Positions 26,551 through 61,440 of a DNA stretch of 64,000 nucleotides are shown here, piece by piece; position 1 is the stretch's first letter, and each line of letters begins with the position of its first letter. This DNA comes from Pseudomonadota bacterium (GTDB taxonomy: Bacteria > Pseudomonadota > Alphaproteobacteria > Caulobacterales > Parvularculaceae). The stretch is from positions 72,659 through 136,658 of the forward strand of contig JBCCOS010000003.1 in the NCBI GenBank assembly GCA_039025235.1. Reading direction: 5' to 3'. Made by a program: the position numbers and the translations under genes. The notes under the pieces are model-generated. The model was not told where the DNA came from. It did no database searches and saw only the letters and a list, made by a program, of their open reading frames with translations.

Positions 26551-26731
26551 GGCGTCACGTCCCTAATCTGTGTCCATGGATTGGATGAGGAGATCGTATC
26601 GCCGCCGATACATCTCCGATCGGTTATTTTAACCGTAATTTCATATCGGCGCCACCCGCAGAGGGTTGTCCGTGATTTGCTCCACTGTGTGGGCCAAATC
26701 CACTTAAGTCGTTACTTGAGCTAGAAATGCT

Positions 26732-28684: not shown

Positions 28685-28789
28685 CGGGTTCTCCCTGGAC
28701 GTGGCAAGCATCAAACAACAATATGGTTTGACGAGAATTAAGTAGACTATTCTTGTCTTGTCGTAACTAACTCTTTGCGCATTTTATGT

Positions 28790-29572
28790 TCAAGGCGCAG
28801 CTGCATGAATTCCGCGTGTTATGAGTTTTATAAATGGGTCTTCGGCGTCATTGATTTCATCGGCGATTACGATGCGCGACCAATCCGCAATGGATGCTGC
28901 TTCACCTATGGGAGCTTTTAAACAAACCGCGGCTATTTTTTTGAAACGATCCGACGCGCCAGCCGCTTGTGTCTGGGCAATGAACAGTTGGGCAGAACGC
29001 GCAGAATAAAAAAGGGCGAGAACCTCGCGCTGTTCCGACAGCGCATTATCAATGGCGCTCAAGGTCTGTGGCGATATGCGCTCACGCGCTGTCGCCTCAT
29101 AAATAACCTCACGGCGAGAAGAGATGCCGTGTTCTTGCAACAACGCGCAAAGGTCGCCAGCGCGGTGGACGCCCGCCACATGTAACACGGTGCCCGTTGT
29201 TTGGGGCTGGAAAATAGGGGCGCTTGAAATGAGCCGTGCAAGCGCCCTTACATCGCCATCGGCCGCGTTGACGTTGGTGAACCCAGCGGTCGCCGCCGCC
29301 TTTGCCGTCGCCGGACCTACGGCAAACACCGGCAATTCACGTCGGTCCGACTTTTCCGCAAAAGCTCTGACGCCATTGGCTGAGGTGAAAGCAAGGCTTG
29401 TGACGTTCGTCATATCAACCGCAACATCATTCGGCGCGATGTCCATAACGGGGGCAAAATGCGCGTCCTCGCCAATTTCCGCCAGTGACTGTATGAGAGA
29501 TGGGCCGTCCGGCGCGGGCCGGGTCACGATGATGAGCCGTTTTGCGGTATGATCGGGGCGGCTATCCTGCAT
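28790..29572 (-). CDS. hemD: uroporphyrinogen-III synthase
   Basis: RLIIVTRPAPDG...TSANGVRAF...AVGPATA. HemD-like length and position upstream of mic60-hemY. Confidence 0.8.
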   Translation of the reverse strand: MQDSRPDHTAKRLIIVTRPAPDGPSLIQSLAEIGEDAHFAPVMDIAPNDVAVDMTNVTSLAFTSANGVRAFAEKSDRRELPVFAVGPATAKAAATAGFTNVNAADGDVRALARLISSAPIFQPQTTGTVLHVAGVHRAGDLCALLQEHGISSRREVIYEATARERISPQTLSAIDNALSEQREVLALFYSARSAQLFIAQTQAAGASDRFKKIAAVCLKAPIGEAASIADWSRIVIADEINDAEDPFIKLITRGIHAAAP

Positions 29573-34078: not shown

Positions 34079-36157
34079 GTGAGGTGGCCCATGGTGAATG
34101 ACAATCCAAAAATGAGGCTTTTCCTTGGATCCCCAGTTTTCCTAGGATCCCCAGTTTGGCAACGTGGTTGGCGTGGTGCTTGTTGGCGTTTCGGGTTTTT
34201 GCCAATTGGGTTTTTTCGATATGAACAAGCGTCCAACGGATCTTTGTTGCCAAAAAAATCGCCAGAAGAACGGCCAGAAGAACTGTCAGAAGATTTGTGC
34301 AGTGCGGCGACAGCGCTCGCGCTTATACTGATGTCGTTATTTGTTGCGCCAGCGGTGGCACAGGAATTCGACCGTCAGGTCGTTTTTGGCGACAGCCTTT
34401 CCGATCCGGGCAATATTTTTCCGGATCTTCGTTTTACCAACGGACCGCTTTACGCAGAGATTTTGCAACAAAATTTCCGTATCGATGATGCGGATGTATT
34501 CAACTCCGCGGTCGGTGGTGCAAAAACCAGTCAATCGCCAAACCCCAGCGGCTTCGTGACCGGTAACATATCGGATGTGGTATTGGTCGCTGATACCGAT
34601 CTGACCAACCAATCCGACAATTTTCTTGATCGTCAGGGCGGCGCGCATAGTTCGACAAGCTTGTTTATCGTCAATGGTGGGGGCAATAACGGCTTCGTCA
34701 CCAATCAGATTTCGTTTTTGCCGAGCACCACTGATCCTATTGGGCTATTGCAGTCGGCAGCGCTGCAGGCTTCGAGTGATCTTGTATCGATTTCGTCCAG
34801 TCTGATTTCGGCGGGCGCACAAACAATTGTCGTTCCAAATTCTGCGGATTTGGGGGCTGTTGCTGAACCTTTTGGGTTCGGCACAAGTATTGAAACCGAA
34901 AGCCGTTCGCGTTCAACGATCTTTACGAATGAATTCAACGCAGCGCTGGTATCGGACCTGGGAGCGCTAGCCGCAACAACGGATACTGACATTATCCTTG
35001 TTGATGTAAACACGCTCTTTGCTGATGCACAGGCAAATCCAGAGAAATATGGTATCAGCAATGTAACAGATGCTTGCAGCAGCACGCCATCCTGTGTGAC
35101 GGCGAGCTTTGACGATCAAAATCAGTTCCTCTTTTTTGATGGTGTGCACCCGACGGCGGCGGGTCATACCATCAAAGGGCAATTTTACACCGATACGATC
35201 CTTGCTCCATTTGTTCTAGGCGGTGTTGCAGAAACGTTGCGGGATAGCGCCGAAGCGCGGCGCCAGCGGTTTGCCCAAGGGTTTGTGACGACGCGGCTTG
35301 CTGATCGGGCAGGCGAAGACGGAATTATCGTTTTCGTCGACAGTGGGTATCTCGATCTCGAGCGCAATGCAGCGTCCGGCATTCTTGGGTATGAGGCGGA
35401 TGGTTTTGATACTGGCGGCGGTATCGGCAAGGTGTTTGATGCGAACTGGGCGGCCGCTATTTATGGTGGTATCTCGCGCTTTGATGGCTTGTTTGAGACG
35501 CGTGCTGCTGGGTTCGATATTGATGCGTATTACTTTGGGGGTCTCGCCCAAGGCAATTTGCCCTATAATATTCTGTTCACGGCCGATGTGGGGATACAAT
35601 TCTCCGACATCGTTACTGACCGTGATACGGGGGTTGCGAACCAATCTGCCATCGGGGAGCAGGAAACCACATCATTCTCGGTATCTGGTCGTGTCTCAAA
35701 AGACCATTATTTCGGCAATTTTGTTTTCACACCAGAGGTCGCACTGGGGTATTTTCGGGCTGACCTTGATGCCTACCAGCAATCAGGTGCGACCGGGCTT
35801 GATCTTGCCGTTCGTGGAACGGATGTTGATGCTGCCTATGCTGAAATCGGTGGGCGCTTAGCGCGACCGTTCAGTTTGGGTAGGGATACGTCCATCATCC
35901 CAAGCGCAAGGGTCCTTTATCGCACGGACTTCAATGAATTTGATCAAACAATCGTCACTGACCTTGTAAGTGCGCCCGGTGTGCCACGGACAACCTTTAT
36001 TAACGGCTATGCCGACAACTCTTTGCGTCTTGAAGGCGGCGTTGTGGTAGAGGCTGTTGATGGCTTTATGATCGACCTAAACGGGGGTGGTCTCCTTGCG
36101 CGCAATGGAGAAAGCTCTGGCTATTTCATTTCAGCGCGTGTTTCGGTTGGCTTCTAA
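34079..36157 (+). CDS. autotransporter with SGNH/GDSL esterase-lipase passenger domain (EstA-like)
   Basis: GDSL block VVFGDSLSDPGN, block V FFDGVHPTAAGH, and a C-terminal beta-barrel ending ...YFISARVSVGF. The start is uncertain. The signal peptide ...ALALILMSLFVAPAVAQE suggests initiation near 34295-34331. Confidence 0.85.
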   Translation: MRWPMVNDNPKMRLFLGSPVFLGSPVWQRGWRGACWRFGFLPIGFFRYEQASNGSLLPKKSPEERPEELSEDLCSAATALALILMSLFVAPAVAQEFDRQVVFGDSLSDPGNIFPDLRFTNGPLYAEILQQNFRIDDADVFNSAVGGAKTSQSPNPSGFVTGNISDVVLVADTDLTNQSDNFLDRQGGAHSSTSLFIVNGGGNNGFVTNQISFLPSTTDPIGLLQSAALQASSDLVSISSSLISAGAQTIVVPNSADLGAVAEPFGFGTSIETESRSRSTIFTNEFNAALVSDLGALAATTDTDIILVDVNTLFADAQANPEKYGISNVTDACSSTPSCVTASFDDQNQFLFFDGVHPTAAGHTIKGQFYTDTILAPFVLGGVAETLRDSAEARRQRFAQGFVTTRLADRAGEDGIIVFVDSGYLDLERNAASGILGYEADGFDTGGGIGKVFDANWAAAIYGGISRFDGLFETRAAGFDIDAYYFGGLAQGNLPYNILFTADVGIQFSDIVTDRDTGVANQSAIGEQETTSFSVSGRVSKDHYFGNFVFTPEVALGYFRADLDAYQQSGATGLDLAVRGTDVDAAYAEIGGRLARPFSLGRDTSIIPSARVLYRTDFNEFDQTIVTDLVSAPGVPRTTFINGYADNSLRLEGGVVVEAVDGFMIDLNGGGLLARNGESSGYFISARVSVGF
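34121..34156. repeat. 18-bp x2 tandem repeat in the argG/autotransporter leader region
   Basis: ttccttggatccccagtt / ttcctaggatccccagtt. Confidence 0.9.
34261..34296. repeat. 12-bp x3 tandem repeat in the argG/autotransporter leader region
   Basis: gccagaagaacg / gccagaagaact / gtcagaagattt. Confidence 0.85.
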
Positions 36158-36204: not shown

Positions 36205-38064
36205 ATGGCAATCAAATTCGGAAGAGTTTTGCGAGGACGAGGGGCTGCGTTTCCCCATGTCCCCAGCACAGTCCTATCTACTGAAAGACACTCTCTAGTG
36301 GCATCATTTGACCGTCGCCAGTTGGTCTTGGCAGCCAGTCCCTTGAACCTCATTTTACTCGCAGTATTTTTCACCGGCTGTGCGTTCATCTTGTCGACGC
36401 CTCCATTTGAGGGCTTCGACGAGACGGCCCATTATTCGTCGGTGCAATTGATCGCTGATGAAGGGCGCATACCGGTATATGGAAAAGATCTCATAGCGCG
36501 CGATGTCAACGAGTATTTGACCGTTGGACCGGATCGCTATTCTTCGGTTCCCCCTTTTGATGAAAGTCCTAATAAGTCGTATAAAGATGTGTTTATGGAC
36601 GAAGGAGGGGTTGATGCAATGCGATCATTTATCAATCAACCACCTAAAACACCGCGCAAGTTTGAGCAAGGACGGTCAATAAACTGGCAGGCACAGCATC
36701 CACCCCTCAGCTACATTGCGCTTGCGCCCGTCTATAGTCTTACAAAGACGTTGGATTGGAAGGCGCATTTGTTTTGGCTACGGTTGGCCTGTTGGGTCGT
36801 CGCATTCGCTGGCCTTTGGATTGGTGTTGAGGCGACCGCCTCTTTTTTTAAGCTGGATCAAGCAACGCTGGGGCCGTCGAGCACGTTCAGTGACTTTGAT
36901 CAAACGGAAAACCAATTAGCTGTGCCCTTTATGATGGCATGTTGGCCATTTTTAGCGCCGATGTTCTTTGTGGAGATGGCCAGGCTCGGTAATGATAGCT
37001 TTTGTCTTCTTTTTGCAGGCATCAGCTGGGCAGCGCTTTTGAATTATTTGAAGCATCGCAGCACGCAAAGCGGTGTTTCAAGGGCAAGCTTTTTGTTAGC
37101 GAGCGCCATCGGTTTTGGCGCGTTGACGAAAGCATTCTTTCTACCGGTTGCTGTGGGTATTGGATTATTGCTCTCGTGGCATGCCATCTCGGACTTGCTT
37201 CGAGATATCAGGGGAACGTCGCATCAATCCTTCTTGCAACAGCTTGCCAGAGTACTTGCCCCTGTCGCGGTATTCGGCGTGACATTTCTTATCATCGCTG
37301 GTGGTTGGTATGCGCAGAAATATTTTTCAACGGGAACCATTACAGGGTCCCATGACATGGCATCGCTTAAGGCAAGCGGTGGGATGAGCGCTGCGGACTC
37401 TGGGTTTTCCATTTTCATTTTTTTAAACCGACTTGCATCATTGTATATGAGCTTTGTCTGGGCCGGAACCTGGTCTTTTGTATCGATGCCGAGGGTTCTT
37501 GAAGCAATATTGTCTGTATTATTCGCTATACCACTTGTTTATTACCTTCAACGTGTGGTGAGGGAACGTCCGGATAAAGAAATTTTTACACCAGGTTTGC
37601 TAGATGCACCAATCTTTATGGTGGCACCTGTCGTTGTGGGGCTCGGCTACCACGCTGCCGTTCAAGTCATGTTGGGCCCAAAGGGCATCGTGACACCCGG
37701 ATATTATTTACATATTTTTGCAACGCCCATCGGATTTGCTTTTGCGTTGGGCGCTATACGGCTGATGGAGCTGCGAACCGGTATTTTTGCCGTTGGCCGT
37801 TTGTTAATCGTGATATTTGTATTGTATGCGGCGCTGTTTATCGTGCTCGCTCAATTCCATCAAATGACCCTGTTTTCGGGGTGTTCCATTAAAGATCCTA
37901 TTACCCGTACCTATCGGGCCCTCGAATGCTTTGGTCATGCGCCCTTGATGATGGAGAGACTCGAAATCCTAATCTTTCCAAAGCTCGCTTTGACGTTCTA
38001 CGCCTTAGGCGGCGGTCTGTTTATACTAGCCGCGTGGCGCGCCATTAAAAAATCGGTAGAATGA
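36205..38064 (+). CDS. polytopic membrane protein, GT-C-like glycosyltransferase candidate (PMT_2 / DUF2142-like)
   Basis: More than 10 hydrophobic segments. The first periplasmic loop motif PPFEGFDETAHY resembles the DE-containing loop of ArnT/PMT-type enzymes. The assignment is tentative. Confidence 0.45.
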   Translation: MAIKFGRVLRGRGAAFPHVPSTVLSTERHSLVASFDRRQLVLAASPLNLILLAVFFTGCAFILSTPPFEGFDETAHYSSVQLIADEGRIPVYGKDLIARDVNEYLTVGPDRYSSVPPFDESPNKSYKDVFMDEGGVDAMRSFINQPPKTPRKFEQGRSINWQAQHPPLSYIALAPVYSLTKTLDWKAHLFWLRLACWVVAFAGLWIGVEATASFFKLDQATLGPSSTFSDFDQTENQLAVPFMMACWPFLAPMFFVEMARLGNDSFCLLFAGISWAALLNYLKHRSTQSGVSRASFLLASAIGFGALTKAFFLPVAVGIGLLLSWHAISDLLRDIRGTSHQSFLQQLARVLAPVAVFGVTFLIIAGGWYAQKYFSTGTITGSHDMASLKASGGMSAADSGFSIFIFLNRLASLYMSFVWAGTWSFVSMPRVLEAILSVLFAIPLVYYLQRVVRERPDKEIFTPGLLDAPIFMVAPVVVGLGYHAAVQVMLGPKGIVTPGYYLHIFATPIGFAFALGAIRLMELRTGIFAVGRLLIVIFVLYAALFIVLAQFHQMTLFSGCSIKDPITRTYRALECFGHAPLMMERLEILIFPKLALTFYALGGGLFILAAWRAIKKSVE

Positions 38065-39289
38065 TAAAGGCGGTTGTGGCTACCGCATAGAGTGCTGCAA
38101 GTAAGCCCATGCGCATTGTCGATTTTTTGCGAAAAAATATTGCTACCGGGATAAGCAAGCCATTGGCGATGATTAAAAACCAGGCGGTGTTTGGGCTTGG
38201 CGCCAATTCAGCAAGGGGCGGGGGTTGAAAGCCTCCTGACGATAGCCCCTTGGCAAGCCAAGGAAGCCCTCTTGCCATGTCAATGGAAATGACAAGACCG
38301 ATATAGGCTTTCGAAATATCCGTGAGGGCAATCTCCGTTGTGCGCAGAAAGCTCACGGCTTTCGTGGTCAGAGAGAACGCGTACTCCCGTCCAGCAATGA
38401 GGCCGAGGAAGACCCATGTTGTGGACATCGGGACATTGTTCACTTCTTTGAAATAGAACAGCAGCGAGGCATAGATAAAATCGATAATGGTGGCTGATCG
38501 GATGTCTGTAACAGCGGTTTTTGACTGCAAAATACGTTGCACCGGCCCCCCACTATTCCAGAACGTATAACCGAGCAGCAATATTGTAACGATAACGGCT
38601 GCAATCGCTTCGGCGGGATTAAGGCCAGAGCCGATGGTCACACCGTCATCGCGGGGTAGAAAGACAAAGATATTGGCAAAATCCTGCATCAACCAGACGG
38701 CCCATAAATAGCTCGTGGTGATCCATTGCAAAGCAACCCAGCCCGGATGGTGCTGTTGGTGTTCGGTTCGGCGGAAAAAATTTTCAACCGTGCGTGACAG
38801 GATAAGATAAACGCCACCACCAACGGAAAAGGCGAGGCCATAACCAATAAGAGATTTTTGTAACATGGACGATAGCCCGCTCATGGTGACAAATATCGTC
38901 AGGACCATGAATGTCGTCGAAACAGGCACACCAAACCGTGTTAAGAATAAAAGCATCAGTGGCGGCAACGCGTGGTACCACTGCGGATCAAAAATTGGAT
39001 ATTTTTCCGTGTTCTCGAGGCGTCCGTAGGATGGGTCGCAACCCACTGCGAAATTACATAACTCTTTAAACGTTCCGTCAGGGTTTCTAAGTTCGCCGCC
39101 GTCGGTGACATACCCGAAGGCAAAGACCAACACGAGGACAGTGGCGGCGAAAATAAATAGGACCCACCAGGGCAAACGCCGATTGGAGTTTATGAAAGTC
39201 CCAAGCGTTTGCAGTGCATCGTTTCCGACAACCGCATAGGCTGCAAAGAAAAATCCAAGCGCAGCCCAAAAACTGATATCAAACGCCAT
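38045..39289 (-). CDS. polytopic membrane protein of unknown function (weak PiT/PHO4-like motif)
   Basis: 414 aa, about 10-12 TM segments. The N-terminal VGNDALQTLGTF distantly resembles the GANDVANxxGT signature of PiT transporters. Its 3' end overlaps the convergent gene by 20 bp. Confidence 0.5.
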   Translation of the reverse strand: MAFDISFWAALGFFFAAYAVVGNDALQTLGTFINSNRRLPWWVLFIFAATVLVLVFAFGYVTDGGELRNPDGTFKELCNFAVGCDPSYGRLENTEKYPIFDPQWYHALPPLMLLFLTRFGVPVSTTFMVLTIFVTMSGLSSMLQKSLIGYGLAFSVGGGVYLILSRTVENFFRRTEHQQHHPGWVALQWITTSYLWAVWLMQDFANIFVFLPRDDGVTIGSGLNPAEAIAAVIVTILLLGYTFWNSGGPVQRILQSKTAVTDIRSATIIDFIYASLLFYFKEVNNVPMSTTWVFLGLIAGREYAFSLTTKAVSFLRTTEIALTDISKAYIGLVISIDMARGLPWLAKGLSSGGFQPPPLAELAPSPNTAWFLIIANGLLIPVAIFFRKKSTMRMGLLAALYAVATTAFIILPIF

Positions 39290-51066: not shown

Positions 51067-51858
51067 TCACGCAGCGGTCGTGGTCACCGGATCTGGCCGT
51101 GACGGCTTATTGGCGCGCTGCACGGCTGCTTCGGCGTCCGTGAGTTCTTTCACCCAGGGATAACGTTTTGCCATTTCGGCATCATACCCAAGGTTCCGAG
51201 CTGTTTTTGTGCGCGGCGCATCCTGTGTCGTCCTGTAAAAGGTGCCAAAGATACGATCCCAATAGAATTCGGTTATGCCGTAGTTCCCGTGTTCATTGTG
51301 AAAATGATGAGCGAGGTGGCGTTCTTTCATAACGAGCCAAAATTTCGATTTCGGTTCGAAAGCGAGATGCTGGCCGCTATGCAAAAACTCAGTAATACAG
51401 GTCATGATGAGCGTCCCGGCGACTGCTGCTAGCGCTGTGGACGGGCCCGCAATCAACCAACCGGCAGGACCTGCAGCGATCAGGATTGTCGGCAAGGTTG
51501 TATGGAGCCCACCAAATAATACCGAAAGATCATTGGGATAAAGGTGATGATCATAATGGACCCGTTTCCAAAGCCGGGCAAAATAGGGAATCTTATACAT
51601 CCAGGAGCCGTGCAGTACGAACCGATGCAGCAGATACCAGGCGATTGGGAAAAGAAATGCGCCGAGCGCCATCGCTGCGATAAAAAGCACGGCTGATGTT
51701 GATAAATATGCCCCAATAGCGAGCGATAGCACAATAAGAACCGCATAAACCTGGATTGCCGGATAGGTCACATAAGCCCTGACCAAATCCTCAAAGGTCA
51801 TCCGATTCAGCAGATAGTTTTGCTCTTTCCAAGCACGGTATCCGATAAACAACTTCAT
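51067..51858 (-). CDS. fatty acid hydroxylase / sterol desaturase superfamily membrane enzyme
   Basis: Three histidine boxes: HRFVLHG, HYDHH and HLAHHFH. Hydrophobic N-terminal half. Confidence 0.8.
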   Translation of the reverse strand: MKLFIGYRAWKEQNYLLNRMTFEDLVRAYVTYPAIQVYAVLIVLSLAIGAYLSTSAVLFIAAMALGAFLFPIAWYLLHRFVLHGSWMYKIPYFARLWKRVHYDHHLYPNDLSVLFGGLHTTLPTILIAAGPAGWLIAGPSTALAAVAGTLIMTCITEFLHSGQHLAFEPKSKFWLVMKERHLAHHFHNEHGNYGITEFYWDRIFGTFYRTTQDAPRTKTARNLGYDAEMAKRYPWVKELTDAEAAVQRANKPSRPDPVTTTAA

Positions 51859-53223
51859 AAATTACCTCGGTGCGCCACCACGCAATGGCCCGATCTGTCT
51901 AAAGACGCATTGCTGCGATAGCAATCAAGACCGTTTCTAGCTTTGAGCGCTAGTAGATCCGCCAACGCGTTTCTTAAATAGTCAATTACACTCGGTGTTG
52001 TAACACCGTAAACCCTCTGCAGGGGGCCAAATCGTCTCGCTCGATGCGCATAACCATAAAACGCTGTCCGCTGGCATTTGATCGCTAGCCAATCATTCCC
52101 TCAGGGGAGCTTATTCCAAAACGGTGATTAACCAATAGATTATGCCAAAAAATGTCCATTTGCGTGGGGGCTGACTAGAAACTTGACCCACTTTAAAGTC
52201 GCAATATTGCGGCGAATTGCCTTGTATACGTTCATGCGCTAAAGGGCACGGCCATCGACTAGTTGGGGTCGAACCTACTGCTAAACGATTGTTTCGTTTA
52301 GGGAATGGTTCCTGATTATTCTTTTGCGTCCTTACGGTTTCGAAATAACCTCTTTCAAATAAGACGTTTGAGCCTGTGAAGGCGTTTTCCGCTGTGTTGA
52401 TCGAAATTACGCTCAACCCGATCGAGAATATTGTCGGGTCGTGAATTTATCAAATCGCTTAACATAATGGAATTTCGGCGCTAATACTGCGCGGTCAACA
52501 TATCAATTATGCGACTGAAAAGGTGGGGCAATCATTATTCGTCTCAATTTTTGAGGGAGTTTTCTGTTTTTGTCTCGGACTGTGTTCGGAAGACTTGGCC
52601 ACAACTTTCGTGTGAGCCCGACTAACGCTAAACTGAATCTATTATTCCGACCGTGTTATCAGGAAAGGATCAATTTAAGGAAACTAGACTGATCGATTGG
52701 CGGGGATAGAGATAGATCAATACTCGGCTTTTGGTCGGTTTCCCACTTATCCAGAATTGTGCCGCTCAAAAAAACTGGTCACTCTTTGAAAATCGCCCAA
52801 TCTTATTGGGACGAATGAGTACTTTGGCCAAGATTGTGCGTATTGGGTCGTGAATTGCAATAAAAAGGCAAATTACTTTTAAAGCGGGACTTTTAAAACG
52901 AGACTATTAAACAGGCCGGGGCAGCACGTTCGATGATGCGATGAAAGATTTTTGATGGAGTCAAAACTCTTGCGGGTCGTTTGCTAAACCAGCTCCAAGG
53001 CGGCAGTCGTCGAAGTTGTTAGTATTAAAGGGCTGGTATTTAGGTCACGCGGAAACTGAAATCTTCCGCGGTTTAGGGAAAGACCCGCCGGAGCGACTAG
53101 AACAAGTTGAGAGGTTAGCTATATGCTCAACGAAAAACATAAGTGGCGTATAATCAAAGAGCATTTAGCTTGCTGCTATTTCTTGTGCAGCTGTAGTGCG
53201 TCGGCGACCAGCGGGGGCTTTTA

Positions 53224-55032
53224 ATGTCCATTGAGATGACAGCCGGGATGATGGCTGCTGATACCTTGGTGCGTTCGGACAAAAACGCCCTTCAGCGCAA
53301 GATAGCGATTTCAGGGCTGAATTTTGCCCGCTTGACCGATGCTTTAGAAGCCGGGTCGGTAAAAGGCCGCGGGCTCAGTTTTTATGATGTGCGAGGGGCA
53401 TGTCGCGAGCGTCTGTCCCATAGTGACCTCAAGGTCAGAGCTCAGAGTCTGGCAGCGCGGATCTTGTCACGGTTTGATCGTGGTGATCGTGTTGGGATCG
53501 TTGCTGAGACAAGTCCGGACTTTGTTGTTGCATTTTTCGCGTGCCAATACGCTGGCGTCATCCCTGCACCCTTACCATTACCGGTTAATCTCGGCGGCAA
53601 AGAGGGGTATTTGCAGCAAATCAGGCAAATGTGCCTTAGTGCTGATGCGCGCGGCGTTATTGGTCCGAAAGATCTTGAGAGTTTTCTCGTCGCCGCCATC
53701 GATGGCTTAGCAAATACGCAATTTTTCAGTTTCGATGAACTAAGAGCGTTACCGACGTTTAACGGTGATATAAGGGCCTTCGAAGCGGATGAAATGTGTT
53801 ATATTCAATTTTCATCTGGTTCGACGAGCGCACCGAAGGGGGTCATTGGAACCCAGGCATCCGTCTGTGCTAATCTCTATGGTATTGCAACCTATGGTGT
53901 GCAGGTCACCGATGATGATGCCGTCGTAAGCTGGTTACCGCTCTATCACGACATGGGCCTAATAGGGTGTATGCTGACCCCGATCTTTACGGGTGTTGAT
54001 GGACATTTCTTGGCGACGTCTGATTTTGTCCGTCGTCCGCTTTTATGGCTTCGTCTTTTAACCGAGACGGGTGCAACGATGACATATAGCCCATCTTTTG
54101 GGTATGAATTAGCAGCCAGGCGTGCCGTTCGCGCCGAACCCGGATCGATCGATCTGGCTCGGTTAAGGGTGGCTGGCATTGGGGCAGATATGGTGCGGCC
54201 TGAAGCATTAAACGCCTTTGCTGACGCTTTTTCTGATTCGGGGTTTAAGGCAGGCGCGTTCCTCCCCAGTTACGGTATGGCAGAAGCAACCCTTGCGATT
54301 ACGTTTACTGAGATTGGCGAGGCGGTTAAGCTTGATGACGTTGATGTGCGTTTGCTTAATCGATCGGGAACAGCTCAGCCTGTCAGTGCTATAACACCGC
54401 AAGACAAGCGTCGTTCATTCGTGCGCTGTGGCAGGCCGCTCCCGGGGCATGACCTACAAGTTCGCGATGATGCGGGGGTACCGCTTTCCGATCGCCGCGA
54501 AGGGCGAATATTCATCAAAGGGCCGAGCCTTACGCCTGGTTACTATGGTCAGGTCGATGCGACGCGTGATCTTTACGACGGTGATTGGCTTGATACGGGT
54601 GATATGGGATACATGCTGGATGGCAATATCGTTATTACAGGTCGTGCCAAGGATCTTATTATCATCAATGGGCGGAACATTTGGCCGCAGGATATTGAAT
54701 GGGCTGTCGAGGAAATAGACGGTGTTCGTAAAAACGGTGTCGCAGCGTTTTCGGTTGATGATGGCGCGAGCGAGCGTATCGTTGTCGTTACGGAACGGCG
54801 TGGCGGCATGACGGCCGATGAACTAGCTGAACTTAAGCGGGAAATAGCGAAAATCATTCAAATGACAGCTGGTGCGCCTGCCGAGATTGTGCTGGCGCGA
54901 CCCCATTCCATGGTCCTGACGTCATCGGGAAAATTGTCTCGTTCAAAAGTCAAAGAAAAGTTTTTGAGCGGAGCATTTGAACAAATCGAGAATGCAGAAC
55001 CAGAAAAAGCATTTGCAGAAGCTGGGTCGTAG
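53224..55032 (+). CDS. fatty acyl-AMP ligase / acyl-ACP synthetase-like adenylating enzyme
   Basis: AMP-binding motif YIQFSSGSTSAPKGV, GDMGY and KLSRSKV. About 600 aa, which is FAAL-like. Confidence 0.85.
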   Translation: MSIEMTAGMMAADTLVRSDKNALQRKIAISGLNFARLTDALEAGSVKGRGLSFYDVRGACRERLSHSDLKVRAQSLAARILSRFDRGDRVGIVAETSPDFVVAFFACQYAGVIPAPLPLPVNLGGKEGYLQQIRQMCLSADARGVIGPKDLESFLVAAIDGLANTQFFSFDELRALPTFNGDIRAFEADEMCYIQFSSGSTSAPKGVIGTQASVCANLYGIATYGVQVTDDDAVVSWLPLYHDMGLIGCMLTPIFTGVDGHFLATSDFVRRPLLWLRLLTETGATMTYSPSFGYELAARRAVRAEPGSIDLARLRVAGIGADMVRPEALNAFADAFSDSGFKAGAFLPSYGMAEATLAITFTEIGEAVKLDDVDVRLLNRSGTAQPVSAITPQDKRRSFVRCGRPLPGHDLQVRDDAGVPLSDRREGRIFIKGPSLTPGYYGQVDATRDLYDGDWLDTGDMGYMLDGNIVITGRAKDLIIINGRNIWPQDIEWAVEEIDGVRKNGVAAFSVDDGASERIVVVTERRGGMTADELAELKREIAKIIQMTAGAPAEIVLARPHSMVLTSSGKLSRSKVKEKFLSGAFEQIENAEPEKAFAEAGS

Positions 55033-55119
55033 TTTTTCGTCGTATACCCCCCTAAAAGGCTGCCGCAAAAAATGCGATCGACAAGTTGATAAGATCGATC
55101 AATCACTCAGCGTTGATCT

Positions 55120-56082
55120 ATGAACCGAGACGTTAAGCGTATTGCCATTACTGGCGGAACAGGTTTTGTCGGGAAGCGATTCATTGAGCACGCGCTTTCG
55201 CATAATATAGAGATCTCTGCTTTGGCACGGAAGGCTTCAGCATTTTCTTCGGACGCTGAAGCGCGATCGTCTGGCCAGTTGACGATTGTGCAAGGGGACC
55301 TCGCCGATGGTGATGCGCTGCGGCGTATCGCCAATAGCGCGGATGTTTTCATTCATTGTGCCGGTCTGACGCACGCGCTGCGTGCCGAAGAGATGGAGCG
55401 TGTGAATGTTGACGGTTCGGCTGCCGCGGCGCGCGCGGCCATGGCGGCTGGCGCTTTGTTCCTACAGATTTCGTCAATGGCGGCTCGATGCCCTGAGCTT
55501 TCTACCTATTCGGCGACCAAGAGAGCGGGCGAAGAGGCAAGCCGTAATGAGTGCGCCTCTGATCAGTGGCTTGCGCTGCGCCCACCCGCTATCTTCGGGC
55601 CTGGCGACACCGCAACATTACCATTATTTAAGATGGTCAAGGCAGGTTTTGCCCCAGAGCCGGCGACCCCAACGGTGGCGCGGGCCTCAATTCTCTATGT
55701 GGATGACGTCGTCATGGCGATGCTTTCGGCTGCAAAAACAGCGAAGCCAGGACTTTGCTATGACATCGATGACACATCGTCTGACGGATACAGTTGGCGT
55801 GAGATCGGTGAAACGCTTGGTGAGGCGTTCGGCAAACAGGTGCGATCGTTTCGCACACCTCGTATTGTGATGGAAGCTCAGGCCATTCTTGCTGAGGCTG
55901 CCGGCCGCGTTCGTGGTAAAGCGAGTTTTGTTAACCGCGGCAAAGTGGCTGAGTTTTTTCATCCCGACTGGGTCGCGCGAGACAATCTTTTGAGCGCTCA
56001 TACCGAATGGGCTGCGACAATACCTCTTCGGGATGGGTTTGCAAAAACACTCAGCTGGTATCAAGACCAAGGACTGATATAA
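55120..56082 (+). CDS. NAD-dependent epimerase/dehydratase-family SDR (CerR-like reductase candidate)
   Basis: IAITGGTGFVGKRF Rossmann motif and YSATKRAGE (YxxxK). Position between the adenylating enzyme and the ACP. Confidence 0.8.
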   Translation: MNRDVKRIAITGGTGFVGKRFIEHALSHNIEISALARKASAFSSDAEARSSGQLTIVQGDLADGDALRRIANSADVFIHCAGLTHALRAEEMERVNVDGSAAAARAAMAAGALFLQISSMAARCPELSTYSATKRAGEEASRNECASDQWLALRPPAIFGPGDTATLPLFKMVKAGFAPEPATPTVARASILYVDDVVMAMLSAAKTAKPGLCYDIDDTSSDGYSWREIGETLGEAFGKQVRSFRTPRIVMEAQAILAEAAGRVRGKASFVNRGKVAEFFHPDWVARDNLLSAHTEWAATIPLRDGFAKTLSWYQDQGLI

Positions 56083-56220
56083 TAGACACCAAAATTAGAT
56101 GAAACCTCGGATATTTGGCCTAGACGCTGTATCTGGACGCTGTATTCCGAGTGACAGTGGTTAAACGCGCGAAATCAGCTAACCTATCCGTTAAGCGATA
56201 ACGATACGGCGGGACGAATT

Positions 56221-56508
56221 ATGACGAGCACCAATGATGCACCGGCGACCGGTGTTGAAGAAGATAACGACCTTGTCTTTCGAAAGCTATGTAGTCTTAT
56301 TGATCCGTTAAACACGACTGGCGTTAAGCTGACGCGGGATACGGATCTTGTTGCTGATTTAGAAATCGATAGTGTTTCGATCCTCGATGTGGTGATGGAG
56401 ATCGAAGATACTTATGATATCTCTATTCCAGTGAATACGATTTCAGAGACCAGAAGCATTGGTGAGCTTGTCGATGCAATTCATGCGATAAAGAAAGAAC
56501 AAACCTAA
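56221..56508 (+). CDS. acyl carrier protein
   Basis: LVADLEIDSVSILDVVMEIED contains the DS phosphopantetheine-attachment site. 95 aa. Confidence 0.85.
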   Translation: MTSTNDAPATGVEEDNDLVFRKLCSLIDPLNTTGVKLTRDTDLVADLEIDSVSILDVVMEIEDTYDISIPVNTISETRSIGELVDAIHAIKKEQT

Positions 56509-56592
56509 CGTGACCAACATGCGTTGGCATCAGTAAACCAATATCAGCCAAAGTTGATTAGACGGTCGCGTCAATAATTCGAGAAATAGTTT

Positions 56593-57792
56593 ATGAGCCT
56601 ATTCGAAAAATTCGAGAAAACTGCAACGCTTTACGACGGCTTATCAGCCATCGGGAAAAATCCGTTTACGGTTGTTATGGAAGAAATCCTGGGTCCGACG
56701 CGCGCCAGTATAAAAGGTCGCGAGACCGTTCTTGCGGGCACGCATAACTATATGGGATCCTCGTTCGATGCAGCATCGATTGAAGCTGGTAAGGAAGCGC
56801 TTCAGCAATATGGTACCGGAACAACGGGGTCACGGTTCGCCAATGGGACCTACACGCCGCACCGTGCTTTAGAAGACGATCTCGCGACTTTTCTGGGGCT
56901 TGAGCAGTGTATTGTTTTTTCCACTGGCTATCAGGCAAACTTGGGGGCGATTTCGGCTCTAGCGAAACCTGGTGAGGATGTCATCCTGGTTGATGCCGAT
57001 TGCCACGCATGTATTTATGATGGGTGCCAACTTGCTGGGGCTGAAACAATTCGCTTTCGTCACAATGATCCTGAAAGTCTGGACAAACGCTTAAAACGTC
57101 TGAGCCCTGATGTTAAAGGAAAGCTCGTCTGCATTGAGGGCATGTATTCCATGTATGGCGATATTGCCCCTGTCGATGAATTTGTTGATGTTGCCCACGC
57201 TAACGATGCTTATCTATATGTCGACGAGGCTCATTCATTTGGGATCTATGGTGACAATGGGCGCGGCGTTGCCGAAGCTGATGGCGTCATGGATAAGATT
57301 GATTTTTACTCCGGGACATTTTCAAAAAGCCTTGCTTCTGTCGGTGGATTTGTTGCTTCAAATCATAAAGAACTGGACAATCTCCGGTTTTCTGCGCGGG
57401 CCTATATGTTCACAGCCTCACCGACACCCGCCAATATTGCGACGACCCACGCAGCCTTAAGGCGTTTGGACAATGACCCCAGCGTGCGTGAACAGCTTTG
57501 GGAAAATATAAATCGTCTGCATGCCGCGTTTACGCAGTTAGGCTTGAGAGTGGCAGCAGATCCGGCACCTGTTATTTCTGTTCTTTTTAAGAAGCAGGAG
57601 GACGCATTTGCGGCCTGGAACCTCATTTTAGAACATGGTGTTTATGTCAATATGGCTATCCCACCAGGTACGCCCTCGTCTGACTCATTGCTGAGGCTTG
57701 CTGTCTCTGCTGCGCACACGACTGATGATATTGACAAGATCGTATCTGCATATAGTGCAATGGCGGATGCGATCCCGGCGTCACGCGCGTGA
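56593..57792 (+). CDS. spt: alpha-oxoamine synthase, serine palmitoyltransferase-like
   Basis: GTHNYMG, GTTGSRFANGT, STGYQANLG, DEAHSFG and SGTFSKSLASVGGFVASN. The PLP-Lys context is closest, from memory, to Sphingomonas SPT. Adjacent dedicated ACP. Confidence 0.8.
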   Translation: MSLFEKFEKTATLYDGLSAIGKNPFTVVMEEILGPTRASIKGRETVLAGTHNYMGSSFDAASIEAGKEALQQYGTGTTGSRFANGTYTPHRALEDDLATFLGLEQCIVFSTGYQANLGAISALAKPGEDVILVDADCHACIYDGCQLAGAETIRFRHNDPESLDKRLKRLSPDVKGKLVCIEGMYSMYGDIAPVDEFVDVAHANDAYLYVDEAHSFGIYGDNGRGVAEADGVMDKIDFYSGTFSKSLASVGGFVASNHKELDNLRFSARAYMFTASPTPANIATTHAALRRLDNDPSVREQLWENINRLHAAFTQLGLRVAADPAPVISVLFKKQEDAFAAWNLILEHGVYVNMAIPPGTPSSDSLLRLAVSAAHTTDDIDKIVSAYSAMADAIPASRA

Positions 57793-58265
57793 ATGGAAAA
57801 CCAGGTGGCTGTCATCATCAGTAAGCGCCACGATCGCCGATTCTATTAGAAACTTAGTCGCTTTTTCAGAATTAGTTGATCTAAATACTATCGCGACCGC
57901 TTGATCATTGTCGTCTTACGGTCGCGAGAGCTCTGGTGACATTAAACAGTCACAAGCGCGTTATATTTCATATATATACCTACAAAATAGTGCGATCGCC
58001 TGACCACTGCCTTATTTCGGCGAGATAATTGCTTTGTTATCAAATTCGTTGCCGATCTGACGACATTTTATGTCGTCGTAATTGGTTGGCGTATGGTTAA
58101 ATTGTATACGCCGCTGACCGGCTGTCTTCGTGGTTCGTATGAAGACGTCACTAAGGTGCTATACGAGTTTGGAAATATTAGCCGCTTTTGCTTTGAAAGG
58201 TGGTTATGGGTATTAAGATCTGCGGTGTTATTCCGCGCAATCATTTTCGCTGATAAGGTATAGGT

Positions 58266-58814
58266 ATGAGCCAAAGAGTATGTCGGATAGAGATTTTCGC
58301 CGCTTTGTCGCTCGTCTCTTGCATTGTTGGTGGCGCCGCTTTCGCGCAACCGGACGATAATGGTGCTCCCGGATATTCAGCATTGGATGCGTCTTTACCC
58401 ACTCAGGATGAATCTGCCTTACCACATGTGAGCTGTAGGGGAGGGGATTACGAAATCCAGCTTGAAATAAGGGGTGTGAAAGAAAGCATCGGGTTAATGA
58501 CTGCCGAATTATTCTCCGATAATGAAGAAGGGTTTTTGAATAAGGGCGGCCGCCTCCAGCGCGTGCGTTTTGCTGCTAAAGCCCCAATTACACGGCTGTG
58601 TCTTCAACCACCGTCGTCGGGAAAATACGCCATAGCGGTCTATCATGATGAAAATGCAAATAAGGTCCTTGACCGGCGGACTTTGGGCATACCTTCAGAA
58701 CCGTTTGGAATTTCCAATAACCCGATAATGCGTTTCGCGCCTCCGACTTTGGATGAGGCCGCGTTTAACGTCGGTGCAGACGGCGCGCGCATCACAATAA
58801 AATTACGCAATTAG
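58266..58814 (+). CDS. DUF2141 secreted protein
   Basis: Signal peptide, then GKYAIAVYHDENANKVLDRRTLGIPSEPFGISNNP...APPTLDEAAF, as recalled for DUF2141. Confidence 0.7.
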   Translation: MSQRVCRIEIFAALSLVSCIVGGAAFAQPDDNGAPGYSALDASLPTQDESALPHVSCRGGDYEIQLEIRGVKESIGLMTAELFSDNEEGFLNKGGRLQRVRFAAKAPITRLCLQPPSSGKYAIAVYHDENANKVLDRRTLGIPSEPFGISNNPIMRFAPPTLDEAAFNVGADGARITIKLRN

Positions 58815-58875
58815 CGCCTTGTTTTTGTAATGAAATGGCGTCCTAAGGCTAATCCCTCTCTATCGAAATAACTCA

Positions 58876-58988
58876 GACGCTTTAAAGCATTTCCAAGCCA
58901 AGTGTGTGCGGTTGGCGTTAAGGAAATGCGTAAAAATAGTGACGTAAAGCGTCGTCGCGATTCCAATTGAAGTGTCGACGCTTTAAGT
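58876..58988 (-). repeat. Family B modular repeat, copy B6 (inverted orientation)
   Basis: Reverse complement reads CTTAAAGCGTCGACACTTCAATTGGAATCGCGACGACGCTTTACG...TTTTTACGCATTTCCTTAACGCCAACCGCACACACTTGGCTTGGAAATGCTTTAAAGCGTC. Confidence 0.92.
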
Positions 58989-59169
58989 TGATAACGATCG
59001 CTGGAATCATCAGCATAAGGTGTCAACGACTTTGCTTGAGTTATCCTCATCGTAGCAAAAGATAACTATCGTGCCTTCAAAAAATTTATAGGGCTTGGGG
59101 GCTTGCTTGCCTTACAACGTCTTGTTGTAAGTAAAGAAGCGTTCTCTTTTCAATAACGGACACAACACC

Positions 59170-60429
59170 ATGGTTAATGCCGATACAAGCAGCGTGACAG
59201 AGCAGCCAAAAGAAATGGCTGAAACGCAAGTGCATGACGATACGAAAACACCTAACGTCGAGGCGGCGAGCGCGCACAATGTGTCGGTTCCATCCGAAAT
59301 TTCGATTGAGGCGGTGTCAGGCGCCAAAGGCCGAAAGGCGTTCATCGCTGTTCCAAGCGCTATTTATGCCGATGACCCGAATTATGTTGCACCGCTCGAA
59401 TTTGAGATTGATGCGCGTCTCAATCCTAAGGCCAATCCGACACTGAAAAATGCGCAGCACCAGCTGTGGGTGGCTTACAAAAATGCAAAGCCCGTTGGCC
59501 GTATTTCTGCTCTAATCAATCCAATTCATCTCGATTGGTATAAAGATGATGCAGGGCACTTTGGTTTCATCGAAGGTATTGACGACGAAGCCGTCTTTCG
59601 CGCCCTTCTGACGACCGCAGAGAACTGGATGCGAGAGCGCGGCATGAAGAAAGTCGTGGGTCCATTGAGCTTTTCTGTGAACGAAGAGACCGGATTGCTG
59701 ATTGATGGTTTTGATAAGCCGCCGGTGATTATGATGCCGCATGCGCGCACCTGGTATAAAACCCATATCGAACAGTGCGGTTATGAAAAAGCAATGGACA
59801 CTTATGCGCTATCTTATAAGAACGAGCGCCAGCAAATTCCCGAACGTCGACGCCGTTTTATTGAACGTGCGCTGAACAAACCAAATATAAAATTTCGTCA
59901 GGTCGATTTCTCACGCTTCAAAGAAGACGTTCGCTTGGCGATTGATATTTTCAACGATGCTTGGTCAGAGAATTGGGGCTATATCCCCTTCACCTATGAG
60001 CAGGCCGATCACATGGCGAGCGAATTGCGACCTATCCTCGAAGGCCATAATTTCGTCATTGGGGAACATGACGGTGAGCCCGTCGCCTTTGCTATTGTAT
60101 TGCCAAACATCAATGCAGCAATCAAGGAGTTCAAGGGTAAGCTATTGCCGTTTAATTGGACGAAGCTGCTTTATCGACTAAAAGTCAAAGGAATTGACGA
60201 GGCGCGCATGCCTTTAATGGGCGTGCGGAAGAAATATCAAGGCAAACCCCTTGGGACGGCTTTTGCCTATCAACTAATTCATCTGACCAATGAGAAGAAT
60301 ATTGATCGCGGGTTGAGGTGGACAGAGCTTTCGTGGATTTTGGAGAGCAACGTACCAATGTTGAATATGTTACATGACCTTGGTGGTGAAATTTACAAAA
60401 CCCATCGCGTGTTTGAGAAGTCGCTCTAA
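59170..60429 (+). CDS. large GNAT-fold N-acyltransferase-like protein (about 400-aa family)
   Basis: FIAVPSAIYADDPNYVAPLEFE...VGRISALINP...GHFGFIEGIDDE...GPLSFSVNEETGLLIDGFDKPP. I recall this family as annotated generically as an N-acetyltransferase. Its function is not established. Confidence 0.6.
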   Translation: MVNADTSSVTEQPKEMAETQVHDDTKTPNVEAASAHNVSVPSEISIEAVSGAKGRKAFIAVPSAIYADDPNYVAPLEFEIDARLNPKANPTLKNAQHQLWVAYKNAKPVGRISALINPIHLDWYKDDAGHFGFIEGIDDEAVFRALLTTAENWMRERGMKKVVGPLSFSVNEETGLLIDGFDKPPVIMMPHARTWYKTHIEQCGYEKAMDTYALSYKNERQQIPERRRRFIERALNKPNIKFRQVDFSRFKEDVRLAIDIFNDAWSENWGYIPFTYEQADHMASELRPILEGHNFVIGEHDGEPVAFAIVLPNINAAIKEFKGKLLPFNWTKLLYRLKVKGIDEARMPLMGVRKKYQGKPLGTAFAYQLIHLTNEKNIDRGLRWTELSWILESNVPMLNMLHDLGGEIYKTHRVFEKSL

Positions 60430-60534: not shown

Positions 60535-61440
60535 GTGACAAGAAGTATAGCCAAAGTGAAAGAGTTTTTATCGCAAGGTCTTGTGCCTTCTTTCTTTGCT
60601 CCATCCATTTGCGCCCCTGCCTTTTTCACGACGGTTGTTTGGATCAAACTGTCCACTGTTGTCCCGATGGTTTTGTTATTCCTTTCGGCGTTTCTTCCTC
60701 ATGGTGGGGGCGCATATGCCGCTGATGGGCTTGAGCGGTTTGAGGCGCGTGTTGTTAATACGTATCCACATGATCCGGAGGCTTACACCCAAGGCCTCTT
60801 TTTTGGCGACGGCGCTTTAATCGAAACGACGGGCCAGTTTGGTCAATCAAGTTTGCGCCGTGTGGAAATTGAAACGGGTAAAGTTCTAGAAAAGATAAAG
60901 CTCCCCGATCAATTTTTCGGTGAGGGTTCTGTGATGTGGCAAGATCGCATTATCAATCTCACATGGCGGTCGGGTAAAGGTTTTATCTTCTCAAAAGATG
61001 GTTTCAAGAAACTTGGCCAGTTTACCTATGAGGGCGAGGGCTGGGGGCTGACGCACAATGGAACAATGCTCATTATGAGTGATGGTACGCCGCGGCTGCG
61101 GTTCCTTGACCCTGAAACACTCCAAGTAATTCGTACGTTAAATGTAACGTATAGAGATCGGCCTGTCCGGTTTTTAAATGAGTTGGAGTGGATAAAGGGC
61201 CGTCTCTTTGCCAATGTTTATGGCAGAGATTATGTTGTGCGTATTGACCCCGTCAGTGGATTTATTACCGGCGTTATAGACTTTTCGGGTCTCATTCCTG
61301 ATCAGGAAGCGCGCATTGCGAAGGGGGAAGTCTTGAACGGGATTGCCTATGATGCAGGCAATGACCGTTTGTTCGTCACGGGTAAATATTGGCCCAAACT
61401 TTTTGAAGTCGAACTCGTCCCCGTTGGCGGAGGTAACTGA
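60535..61440 (+). CDS. glutaminyl-peptide cyclotransferase (beta-propeller type)
   Basis: YPHDPEAYTQGL...TGQFGQSSLRRVEIETGKV...FGEG...WGLTHNG...SDGT..LRFLDPETL...LNELEWIKGRLFANV...VLNGIAYD. Confidence 0.85.
   Translation: MTRSIAKVKEFLSQGLVPSFFAPSICAPAFFTTVVWIKLSTVVPMVLLFLSAFLPHGGGAYAADGLERFEARVVNTYPHDPEAYTQGLFFGDGALIETTGQFGQSSLRRVEIETGKVLEKIKLPDQFFGEGSVMWQDRIINLTWRSGKGFIFSKDGFKKLGQFTYEGEGWGLTHNGTMLIMSDGTPRLRFLDPETLQVIRTLNVTYRDRPVRFLNELEWIKGRLFANVYGRDYVVRIDPVSGFITGVIDFSGLIPDQEARIAKGEVLNGIAYDAGNDRLFVTGKYWPKLFEVELVPVGGGN

Follow-up and report, generated by a model that had tools for sequence, protein, structure and literature searches.

A contiguous gene set predicted to encode dihydroceramide synthesis, with two conserved neighbours, in a Parvularculaceae genome

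Ceramide formation in bacteria needs five genes (PMC11324152), which have been defined genetically in Caulobacter crescentus within the 17-gene region CC_1152-CC_1168 (PMC11324152, PMC9386255). In that region the five functions are supplied by CC_1165 (aasR), CC_1164 (cerR), CC_1163 (acpR), CC_1162 (spt) and CC_1154 (cerS, also named bcerS), and the genes for the phosphoglycerate head-group (cpg) and for LptF2/G2 lie between cerS and spt. The E. coli BL21(DE3) island holds yghO on the minus strand, divergent from aasR (ECD_02851), epi (ECD_02852), acpR (ECD_02853) and spt (ECD_02854) on the plus strand, and the AasR, AcpR and Spt proteins of E. coli B have been characterised biochemically alongside those of Caulobacter (PMC9386255). 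The order aasR, epi, acpR, spt is also seen in Nitrosomonas eutropha C91 (Neut_0458-0461, as judged by consecutive locus tags), where the acyltransferase gene aca (Neut_1100) lies far from the cluster; this core order is thus already published for both N. eutropha and E. coli B, and among seven genomes compared only Caulobacter and E. coli B had all five genes clustered (PMC9386255). The locus described here lies in a 64,000-nucleotide stretch, referred to as the window, of a metagenome-assembled genome (MAG) from the alphaproteobacterial family Parvularculaceae (GCA_039025235.1, contig JBCCOS010000003.1, positions 72,659 to 136,658), and it holds genes predicted to supply the same five functions.

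These five genes very probably encode a complete dihydroceramide pathway of the Rhodobacteria type, as in C. crescentus and E. coli B. The five families were assigned from profile scores, homology to the E. coli B genes, catalytic residues, gene order and predicted fold, and the five genes that dihydroceramide is known to require fall within 7.2 kb:

53224 to 55032, plus strand: aasR, a fatty acyl-AMP ligase type of acyl-ACP (acyl carrier protein) synthetase (602 aa)
55120 to 56082, plus strand: cerR (epi), a ketoreductase of the extended short-chain dehydrogenase/reductase (SDR) type (320 aa)
56221 to 56508, plus strand: acpR, a specialised acyl carrier protein (95 aa)
56593 to 57792, plus strand: spt, serine palmitoyltransferase (SPT; 399 aa)
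59170 to 60429, plus strand: bcerS (cerS/aca), predicted bacterial ceramide synthase, an N-acyltransferase with tandem GCN5-related N-acetyltransferase (GNAT) domains (419 aa)

The first-pass annotation of the window had read the first four of these as a ceramide core, and its co-directional open reading frames (ORFs) are placed exactly as it claimed, on the plus strand at 53224-57792. The identities that it gave (ACP-synthetase, CerR-like reductase, ACP and Spt) stand; as an outline of the system it was too narrow, as the pathway comprises five genes and runs past 57792. The minimum extent of the unit is 53224-60429, and its full extent is probably 51067-60429. The description of the genes as tightly spaced is accurate for the four core genes, where the spacers between aasR, cerR, acpR and spt measure 87, 138 and 84 nt, and does not extend to the 473 nt that precede a DUF2141 gene downstream of spt or the 355 nt between that gene and bcerS.

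The four core ORFs are genuine genes, with Pfam and NCBIfam E-values from 1e-9 to 1e-196, and belong to the Pfam families AMP-binding, Epimerase/3Beta_HSD, PP-binding and Aminotran_1_2. Their products equal the consecutive MAG proteins MEM6413718-21, deposited on a 308-kb contig, which are generically annotated and each a singleton at 90% identity, and the four are kept in the same order, at 41-81% identity, in dozens of genomes. Every motif quoted in the first reading was found in the translations: FSSGSTSAPKGV in the ligase, GGTGFVGKRF and Y130-x3-K134 in the SDR, IDSVS in the ACP and GTFSKSLASVGGFVASN in the oxoamine synthase. Across the cluster proteins, catalytic residues are invariant over 52-87 homologs.

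In core gene order the window matches the E. coli BL21(DE3) island, and its five proteins have 32-46% full-length identity to their counterparts there (E 8e-136 to 7e-15). These values are in the range accepted for Caulobacter-Sphingomonas orthologs, which share 32-53% identity (supplement of PMC11324152). The two loci differ in that yghO lies upstream of the core and divergent from it, whereas bcerS lies downstream on the same strand; in that spacers of 84-473 nt separate the window genes, against overlapping or almost contiguous genes in E. coli B; and in that the island has neither the hydroxylase nor the DUF2141 gene that the window carries. In E. coli BL21(DE3), spt is followed directly by genes annotated lptG and lptF (2994920-2997066; 4920-7066 of locus L001), which correspond to LptF2/G2, the candidates for sphingolipid transport in Caulobacter, and have no equivalent in the window. 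Searched at the DNA level, the window spt gene has no match in E. coli genomes. Compared with N. eutropha, where the acyltransferase gene is remote, bcerS of the window is only 1.4 kb downstream of spt.

The assignment of the alpha-oxoamine synthase to Spt, and not to BioF, Kbl or ALAS, had been made in the first reading from the context of its pyridoxal phosphate (PLP) lysine and is upheld by several lines of comparison. The protein passes the NCBIfam equivalog model for serine palmitoyltransferase NF047599, a betaproteobacterial model, with 554 bits against a cut-off of 500, and remains below the cut-offs of the rival models (bioF 309/426, Kbl 289/460, ALAS 251/339 and CqsA 185/428 bits). 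Its best sequence matches in the PDB are the Sphingomonas SPTs at ~385 bits (E about 1e-114), with the Sphingobacterium SPT at 289 bits, whereas BioF, Kbl and ALAS entries reach 158-207 bits and the non-SPT classes have E-values of 1e-60 or worse. It is 46% identical to E. coli BL21(DE3) Spt (E 1e-129), as opposed to 27.8% for E. coli BioF and 29.8% for Kbl. A neighbour-joining tree, in which E. coli BioF and Kbl served as the references outside Spt and ALAS was left out, places the synthase inside the Spt clade with E. coli B Spt in 100 of 100 bootstraps, with BioF and Kbl outside it. Across 65 homologs there is no variation at the PLP lysine K245 (in GTFSKS), H138, D211, H214 or R368, and these residues align with Sphingomonas wittichii SPT. 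R368 aligns with an arginine common to the S. wittichii and E. coli B enzymes, which we take to be the serine-carboxylate-binding arginine of Sphingomonas SPT.

The remaining core proteins agree with this assignment. AasR passes the NCBIfam model NF006624 'fatty acyl-AMP ligase' (653 bits, cut-off 600), shares 38% identity with its E. coli BL21(DE3) counterpart across 554 residues (E 8e-136) and has 3pbk, the E. coli 'Fatty Acyl-Adenylate Ligase', as its best PDB match (E 7e-124); the adenylation motifs SGST198-201 and TGD458-460 and residue K570 are invariant in 52 homologs. CerR matches Pfam Epimerase (E 1e-22), carries the glycine-rich GGTGFVG at residues 12-18 and is 34% identical over its full length to the gene in the same position in E. 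coli BL21(DE3) (E 9e-49). Residues S118/S119, Y130 and K134 are invariant in 59 of its homologs, and its PDB matches include the complex I subunit NDUFA9, which Caulobacter CerR is also reported to resemble (PMC11087976). AcpR matches PP-binding (PF00550, E 1.6e-9), falls below the cut-off of every housekeeping (AcpP-type) ACP model in NCBIfam, is 32% identical to E. coli BL21(DE3) AcpR (E 7e-15) and has a phosphopantetheine site, D50-S51, that is invariant in 64 homologs. Its gene lies 84 nt upstream of spt, and a position immediately upstream of spt is also described for acpR in Rhodobacteria (PMC9386255).

The fifth pathway gene is the 419-aa GNAT, predicted from its homology to be the bacterial ceramide synthase. 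The first-pass annotation had listed this 'large GNAT' among the departures from the Caulobacter arrangement; it is instead a homolog of the CC_1154/YghO family, 42% identical to E. coli BL21(DE3) YghO over 376 residues, its full length (E 1e-109), and YghO is listed as the aca ortholog of the Caulobacter CC_1154 N-acyltransferase, which is variously named aca, CerS or bCerS (PMC9386255). Pfam recognises an Acetyltransf_1 domain (31.9 bits, cut-off 20.7). As bCerS has no sequence match in the PDB and no matching NCBIfam model, only fold comparison is informative: the AlphaFold model is a tandem GNAT (pLDDT 82) whose first ~40 residues are disordered and unconserved, and its top Foldseek match is glucosamine N-acetyltransferase 5kf1 (E 3.8e-15, TMt 0.69). 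The next matches, 2wpw, 7q3a and MshD (a clavulanate tandem GNAT, MAB_4324 and mycothiol synthase), are likewise of the amine N-acyltransferase class. More than 5600 homologs were found.

Conservation was assessed by scanning species-representative genomes with a bCerS alignment, keeping the best 80 loci and comparing these by tblastn with nine window proteins. Close relatives, defined by a bCerS at least 49% identical, amount to 58 loci, mostly from Parvularculaceae, of which 40 carry sufficient flanking sequence for evaluation. All 40 encode Spt, AcpR, CerR and DUF2141; AasR occurs in 39, a flanking H+-pyrophosphatase (PPase) in 38, the hydroxylase in 30 and a glutaminyl-peptide cyclotransferase (QC) in 21. 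The order is constant, with the PPase and hydroxylase genes on the minus strand followed by the divergent series aasR, cerR, acpR, spt, DUF2141, bcerS and, in some, QC. The SDR gene lies between aasR and acpR in all 40, as in E. coli BL21(DE3), and is not placed beside sugar genes. Neither of the two computational grounds for refutation named in the first reading (grouping of the synthase with BioF, Kbl or ALAS, and of the SDR with sugar epimerases next to sugar genes) is thus borne out. Clusters from Parvularculaceae have the same nine-gene arrangement as the window and are uncharacterised and generically annotated; their identities to the window proteins are 64-81% for Spt, 65-81% for AcpR, 55-67% for AasR, 41-57% for CerR and 49-66% for bCerS. 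Cultured carriers, of the order Parvularculales, include Hyphococcus luteus (L061), Hyphococcus sp. DH-69 (L054) and ECK-19, and Amphiplicatus metriothermophilus (L034). Conservation of the PPase flank throughout the family makes recent horizontal acquisition of the cluster, which was also considered, unlikely.

A second set of 13 evaluable loci comes from more distant Alphaproteobacteria, including Geminicoccaceae, Kiloniellaceae, Oceanibacterium, Pelagibius, Aquibaculum and Marinimicrococcus. These loci are rearranged, with spt-acpR-cerR-aasR located 3-8 kb from bcerS and on the opposite strand. The locus of Oceanibacterium hippocampi is a Caulobacter-like extended cluster. On the 424-kb plasmid pRo-1 of Roseomonas gilardii (L088, NZ_CP095555.1 325-19086) the gene set parallels Caulobacter CC_1152-1161 and comprises a kinase-family protein, a CDP-alcohol transferase, a metallophosphoesterase, a HIT protein, LptF/G, bcerS and a nucleotidyltransferase, with an FA_hydroxylase and DUF2141 in addition.

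The chemistry proposed for the window is transferred from experiments on Caulobacter and E. coli B (PMC9386255, PMC11324152, PMC11087976). AasR would adenylate a free long-chain fatty acid and load it onto the phosphopantetheine arm of holo-AcpR; the Caulobacter AasR acylates AcpR only, not CoA or AcpP, and Spt prefers acyl-AcpR (PMC9386255). Spt, as a PLP enzyme, would join L-serine to the acyl-AcpR with release of CO2, giving 3-oxosphinganine. The amino group would then be N-acylated by the tandem GNAT bCerS, and the 3-keto group reduced by CerR, an NDUFA9-like extended SDR; the order of these two steps is disputed, with acylation placed before reduction by the Klein group and after it by the Geiger group. 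The clustered di-iron FA_hydroxylase would hydroxylate the ceramide, a step that we infer here. The 64-kb window holds no cpg, ceramide kinase, LptF/G-like or glycosyltransferase partner genes (one distant family 2 glycosyltransferase gene is at 11022-12206), in which it differs from the Caulobacter region with its cpg and LptF2/G2 genes, and the mature lipid cannot be named because such head-group and transport genes were not found there.

The genes and spacer that surround the five pathway genes are as follows:

51067 to 51858, minus strand: FA_hydroxylase-family membrane di-iron oxygenase, divergent from aasR (263 aa, PF04116)
51859 to 53223, no strand: gene-free spacer (1365 nt) that separates aasR from the divergent hydroxylase gene
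58266 to 58814, plus strand: DUF2141 protein with a signal peptide and a C-terminal beta-sandwich (182 aa, PF09912)
60535 to 61440, plus strand: QC, a downstream neighbour of doubtful membership (301 aa, Glu_cyclase_2 E 1.5e-90)

Of the extras named in the first reading, the FA_hydroxylase, the DUF2141 protein, the 419-aa GNAT and the gene-free 1365-nt stretch are all present. The hydroxylase has a PF04116 domain (E 1e-20) and no other Pfam domain, and eleven histidines in four boxes (H78/83, H101/104/105, H160/164 and H181/184/185/187) are invariant in 50 homologs. Its single significant PDB match is yeast Scs7p, a ceramide fatty-acid 2-hydroxylase (4zr0/4zr1, E 4e-8), with which all His boxes align; the alignment is confined to the Scs7p hydroxylase domain (residues 114-290 of 4zr1). 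The two proteins share the FA_hydroxylase fold family and alignable His boxes at low similarity, whereas the N-terminal cytochrome b5 domain of the eukaryotic FA2H/Scs7 architecture is missing from the window protein, which may act in the manner of FA2H without belonging to that architecture. Because Scs7p is the sole solved member of the family, the match leaves the substrate position unfixed. In Caulobacter the acyl chain is hydroxylated by the DesA-family protein CC_0202, encoded elsewhere in the genome (PMC11324152), whereas the FA_hydroxylase of the window is clustered with the pathway genes.

The hydroxylase gene is found at the same position in 30 of the 40 close relatives. In distant Alphaproteobacteria 12 loci, counting short ones, have it as the gene immediately preceding bcerS in the same orientation, at distances of -24 to 129 nt; in O. 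hippocampi it overlaps the start of bcerS by 4 nt, and two LptF/LptG genes and a diacylglycerol kinase (DAGK)-type kinase follow. On pRo-1 it precedes a bcerS that is annotated as a dATP pyrophosphohydrolase. Another ten Roseomonas plasmids, from R. mucosa and Roseomonas sp., encode FA_hydroxylase homologs with an identity of about 46-47%. As the gene is linked to bcerS in three independent arrangements, a ceramide-decorating role is the best reading of it. The protein is likely to be a di-iron enzyme that uses O2 to hydroxylate ceramide, or perhaps to desaturate it, either on the N-acyl chain as Scs7/FA2H do or on the long-chain base. Its absence from a quarter of the close relatives fits an optional decoration. 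The loci in which no hydroxylase gene lies between PPase and aasR and the rest is kept are L015-L017, L023, L026, L032, L033, L036, L037 and L050.

DUF2141 (PF09912) is a Pfam family of no known function, to which the window protein belongs with an E-value of 4e-26 (91.5 bits, cut-off 24.4). The protein has an N-terminal signal peptide, and its AlphaFold model is all-beta with pLDDT >90 for residues 60-182; it has no sequence match in the PDB. All 40 evaluable loci of close relatives have its gene between spt and bcerS, and in the rearranged loci L074, L076, L081, L086 and L088 it is found in the vicinity of sphingolipid genes. Among three more distant homologs, two (L093 and L094) are beside a cluster of inositol-phosphate synthase, CDP-alcohol transferase and LptF-G genes. 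On these two metagenome contigs (L093 2128-8585, L094 2046-8456) the DUF2141 gene is accompanied by genes for inositol-1-phosphate synthase, a nucleotidyltransferase, a CDP-alcohol phosphatidyltransferase, a polysaccharide-type flippase, LptF/LptG and an Exo_endo_phos protein, and the group looks like an inositol-phospholipid or inositol-phosphoceramide cluster. The beta-sandwich protein is assigned to the unit tentatively, where it may handle lipid in the periplasm; it is a lead rather than a finding, and its fold permits no functional call.

Taken together, the FA_hydroxylase and the secreted DUF2141 protein could be unrecognised accessory components of the sphingolipid pathway in many Alphaproteobacteria, a possibility rated somewhat less likely than not. 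If so, the former may be a ceramide hydroxylase that is a non-homologous substitute for the DesA-type CC_0202, and the latter may handle sphingolipids in the periplasm, for example as an intermembrane carrier or as the missing partner through which CerR, an NAD(P)H-type reductase, could act outside the cytoplasm. Several observations weigh against such roles. The Scs7 match does not discriminate between substrates and is compatible with 2-hydroxylation, C4-hydroxylation or desaturation, and the hydroxylase gene is missing from 10 of the 40 close relatives. The DUF2141 model has no Foldseek match in the PDB at E <=0.001 (TMq at most 0.36), the third distant DUF2141 homolog has no lipid genes as neighbours, and in Sphingomonadales DUF2141 adjoins crtG, annotated as a carotenoid 2,2'-beta-hydroxylase gene (PMC5989583). 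In the literature searched, nothing relevant was found on a bacterial FA_hydroxylase/sterol-desaturase gene linked to spt, and the three papers there that mention DUF2141 do not deal with sphingolipids.

The missing hydroxylase gene in those 10 relatives, the crtG neighbourhood and the third distant DUF2141 homolog also lend weight to the most probable rival, in which only the five known genes form a system and the hydroxylase, DUF2141 and QC are bystanders that persist by inherited order or serve another lipid such as a carotenoid. The H+-pyrophosphatase, which is surely unrelated, is equally conserved beside the cluster (38/40), so that synteny within the family proves little alone, and the 17-gene cluster of Caulobacter has no hydroxylase gene and no reported DUF2141 gene. 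What speaks against it is recurrence outside the family: the hydroxylase-bcerS adjacency reappears in another arrangement in Geminicoccaceae, Kiloniellaceae, Oceanibacterium, Pelagibius, Aquibaculum and the Roseomonas plasmids, DUF2141 reappears near sphingolipid or envelope-lipid genes in L074, L076, L081, L086, L088, L093 and L094, and no carotenoid genes were found in the window. As a whole, the bystander explanation is rather unlikely. For QC it is the better one: this gene comes next after bcerS, at times with an overlap, in 21 of the 40 close relatives and in none of the 13 distant loci. QC was set aside as a member of the system, being linked in the close family only; the pattern fits inherited synteny and not functional linkage, and QC is probably a bystander. 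In several relatives (L029, L047, L052 and L059) the bcerS and QC tblastn matches overlap by a few bases at their junction, suggesting that the two genes are co-transcribed.

The dihydroceramide assignment itself also has points that count against it. The window Spt misses the alphaproteobacterial Spt model NF047603 (452 bits, cut-off 670) and passes only the betaproteobacterial one, and its serine specificity is not readable from sequence. CerR has no N-terminal signal peptide, its Rossmann motif beginning at residue 12, whereas Caulobacter CerR is reported to be periplasmic (PMC11087976); the sequence therefore gives no support for Sec/Tat export and does not contradict the experimental localisation in Caulobacter. 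The pathway in this MAG is predicted from its genes, and the likeness to Caulobacter is drawn from published descriptions and from the E. coli B proteins. The literature searched reports no sphingolipids in Parvularculaceae, which is weak evidence as the query was poorly specific.

Some of the same points would allow the cluster to make another alpha-oxoamine lipid, such as a cysteate-derived base of the capnine/sulfonolipid type, a 1-deoxy base or one made from glycine. For the oxoamine synthase family, sequence is no reliable guide to amino-acid specificity, the PDB matches of the window Spt include a cysteate-C-fatty acyltransferase (28eh, 195 bits), 1-deoxyceramides are widespread in nature (PMC11334938), and the missed alphaproteobacterial cut-off could be counted here too. 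Against this, the SPT matches score 385 bits and the cysteate enzyme 195, a difference of about twofold; the curated Spt equivalog model is passed; R368, aligned with the arginine of both compared SPTs, is invariant; and the partners AcpR, AasR, CerR and bCerS are those of the serine-based pathway. A different base is thus highly improbable. That the synthase is housekeeping BioF, Kbl or ALAS, the SDR a sugar epimerase and their grouping coincidental, which the generic Pfam families (Aminotran_1_2, Epimerase) and the equally generic deposited annotation would permit, has a negligible probability and is refuted as far as computation can do so by the failed bioF, Kbl and ALAS models, the higher PDB scores of the SPTs, the closer identity to E. 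coli Spt than to BioF or Kbl, the fully supported Spt clade, and the position of the SDR between aasR and acpR, with no sugar genes, in every evaluable relative. The five-gene dihydroceramide pathway is accordingly kept as the preferred reading.

The gene-free stretch at 51859-53223 is gene-free in the deposited MAG too, where the flanking protein accessions are consecutive, and has a GC content of 45%. No Rfam family matches it and it contains no repeats; it resembles neither the corresponding spacers in relatives nor other parts of the window, and promoter-like and terminator-like sites in it are no commoner than in shuffled sequence. Its 1365 nt are unusually long compared with the roughly 350-1200 nt between tblastn matches in relatives, and it is presumably a long divergent spacer carrying promoters, with nothing in it that points to a separate element. 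In the spacer between DUF2141 and bcerS, a match to the Brucella small RNA BASRCI27 of Rfam at 58876-59052 (plus strand) scored 25.9 bits against a gathering score of 59.8 (E 0.029) and was rejected as likely due to chance.

The remainder of the window is housekeeping, as first described, with genes for IF-2, NusA, RimP, a photolyase, Fur, a MiaB-like protein, PhoH and YbeY, and further genes of this kind for HemY/HemD, TsaD, GpsA, ArgG, ferrochelatase and H+-PPase. A Mitofilin/Mic60-like protein of 660 aa is encoded between the HemY-like and HemD genes at 24769-29572 (minus strand), an arrangement which presumably resembles the alphaproteobacterial Mic60 neighbourhood. At 34079-36157 (plus strand) a GDSL lipase is fused to an autotransporter beta-domain (692 aa), making it a surface-exposed or secreted lipase or esterase. 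Two convergent ORFs of 619 and 414 aa, at 36205-38064 (plus) and 38045-39289 (minus), have no Pfam match at E 0.01, and the AT skew locally switches sign there (+0.126 at 38-40 kb).

The pathway itself and the gene order of its core are already known, and sphingolipid potential is known to be widespread in bacteria, with Spt, CerR and bCerS often clustered; the first-pass view of sphingolipid synthesis as a bacterial rarity no longer holds (PMC11087976; PMC11334938), Spt-like genes having been found in 1271 of 5069 Black Sea MAGs from 38 phyla (PMC11334938). What is new is a lineage, the Parvularculaceae-type Alphaproteobacteria, in which the five genes are contiguous and accompanied by two conserved neighbours that are absent from the pathway literature searched. 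The window thus adds lineage and not mechanism, and ceramide lipids are predicted for Parvularculaceae, including Hyphococcus, Amphiplicatus, Marinicaulis and related MAGs. Surveys based on annotation will miss complete clusters of this kind because NCBIfam lacks a model for the ceramide synthase, whose deposited names are 'hypothetical protein' or 'dATP pyrophosphohydrolase'; relatives of the window protein (P0015, P0085, P0086 and L088 9762-10919) carry these names or that of a generic GNAT. The contiguous five-gene set is a compact cassette for heterologous expression, and the subset of Parvularculaceae that has no hydroxylase gene offers a natural presence/absence comparison for lipidomics. 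If FA_hydroxylase and DUF2141 are accessory components of the pathway, the 'crtG plus DUF2141' pairs of Sphingomonadales might need re-examination as sphingolipid rather than carotenoid genes. Their linkage to bcerS or spt in three gene arrangements makes these two genes candidates for lipid hydroxylation outside Caulobacter and for periplasmic action.

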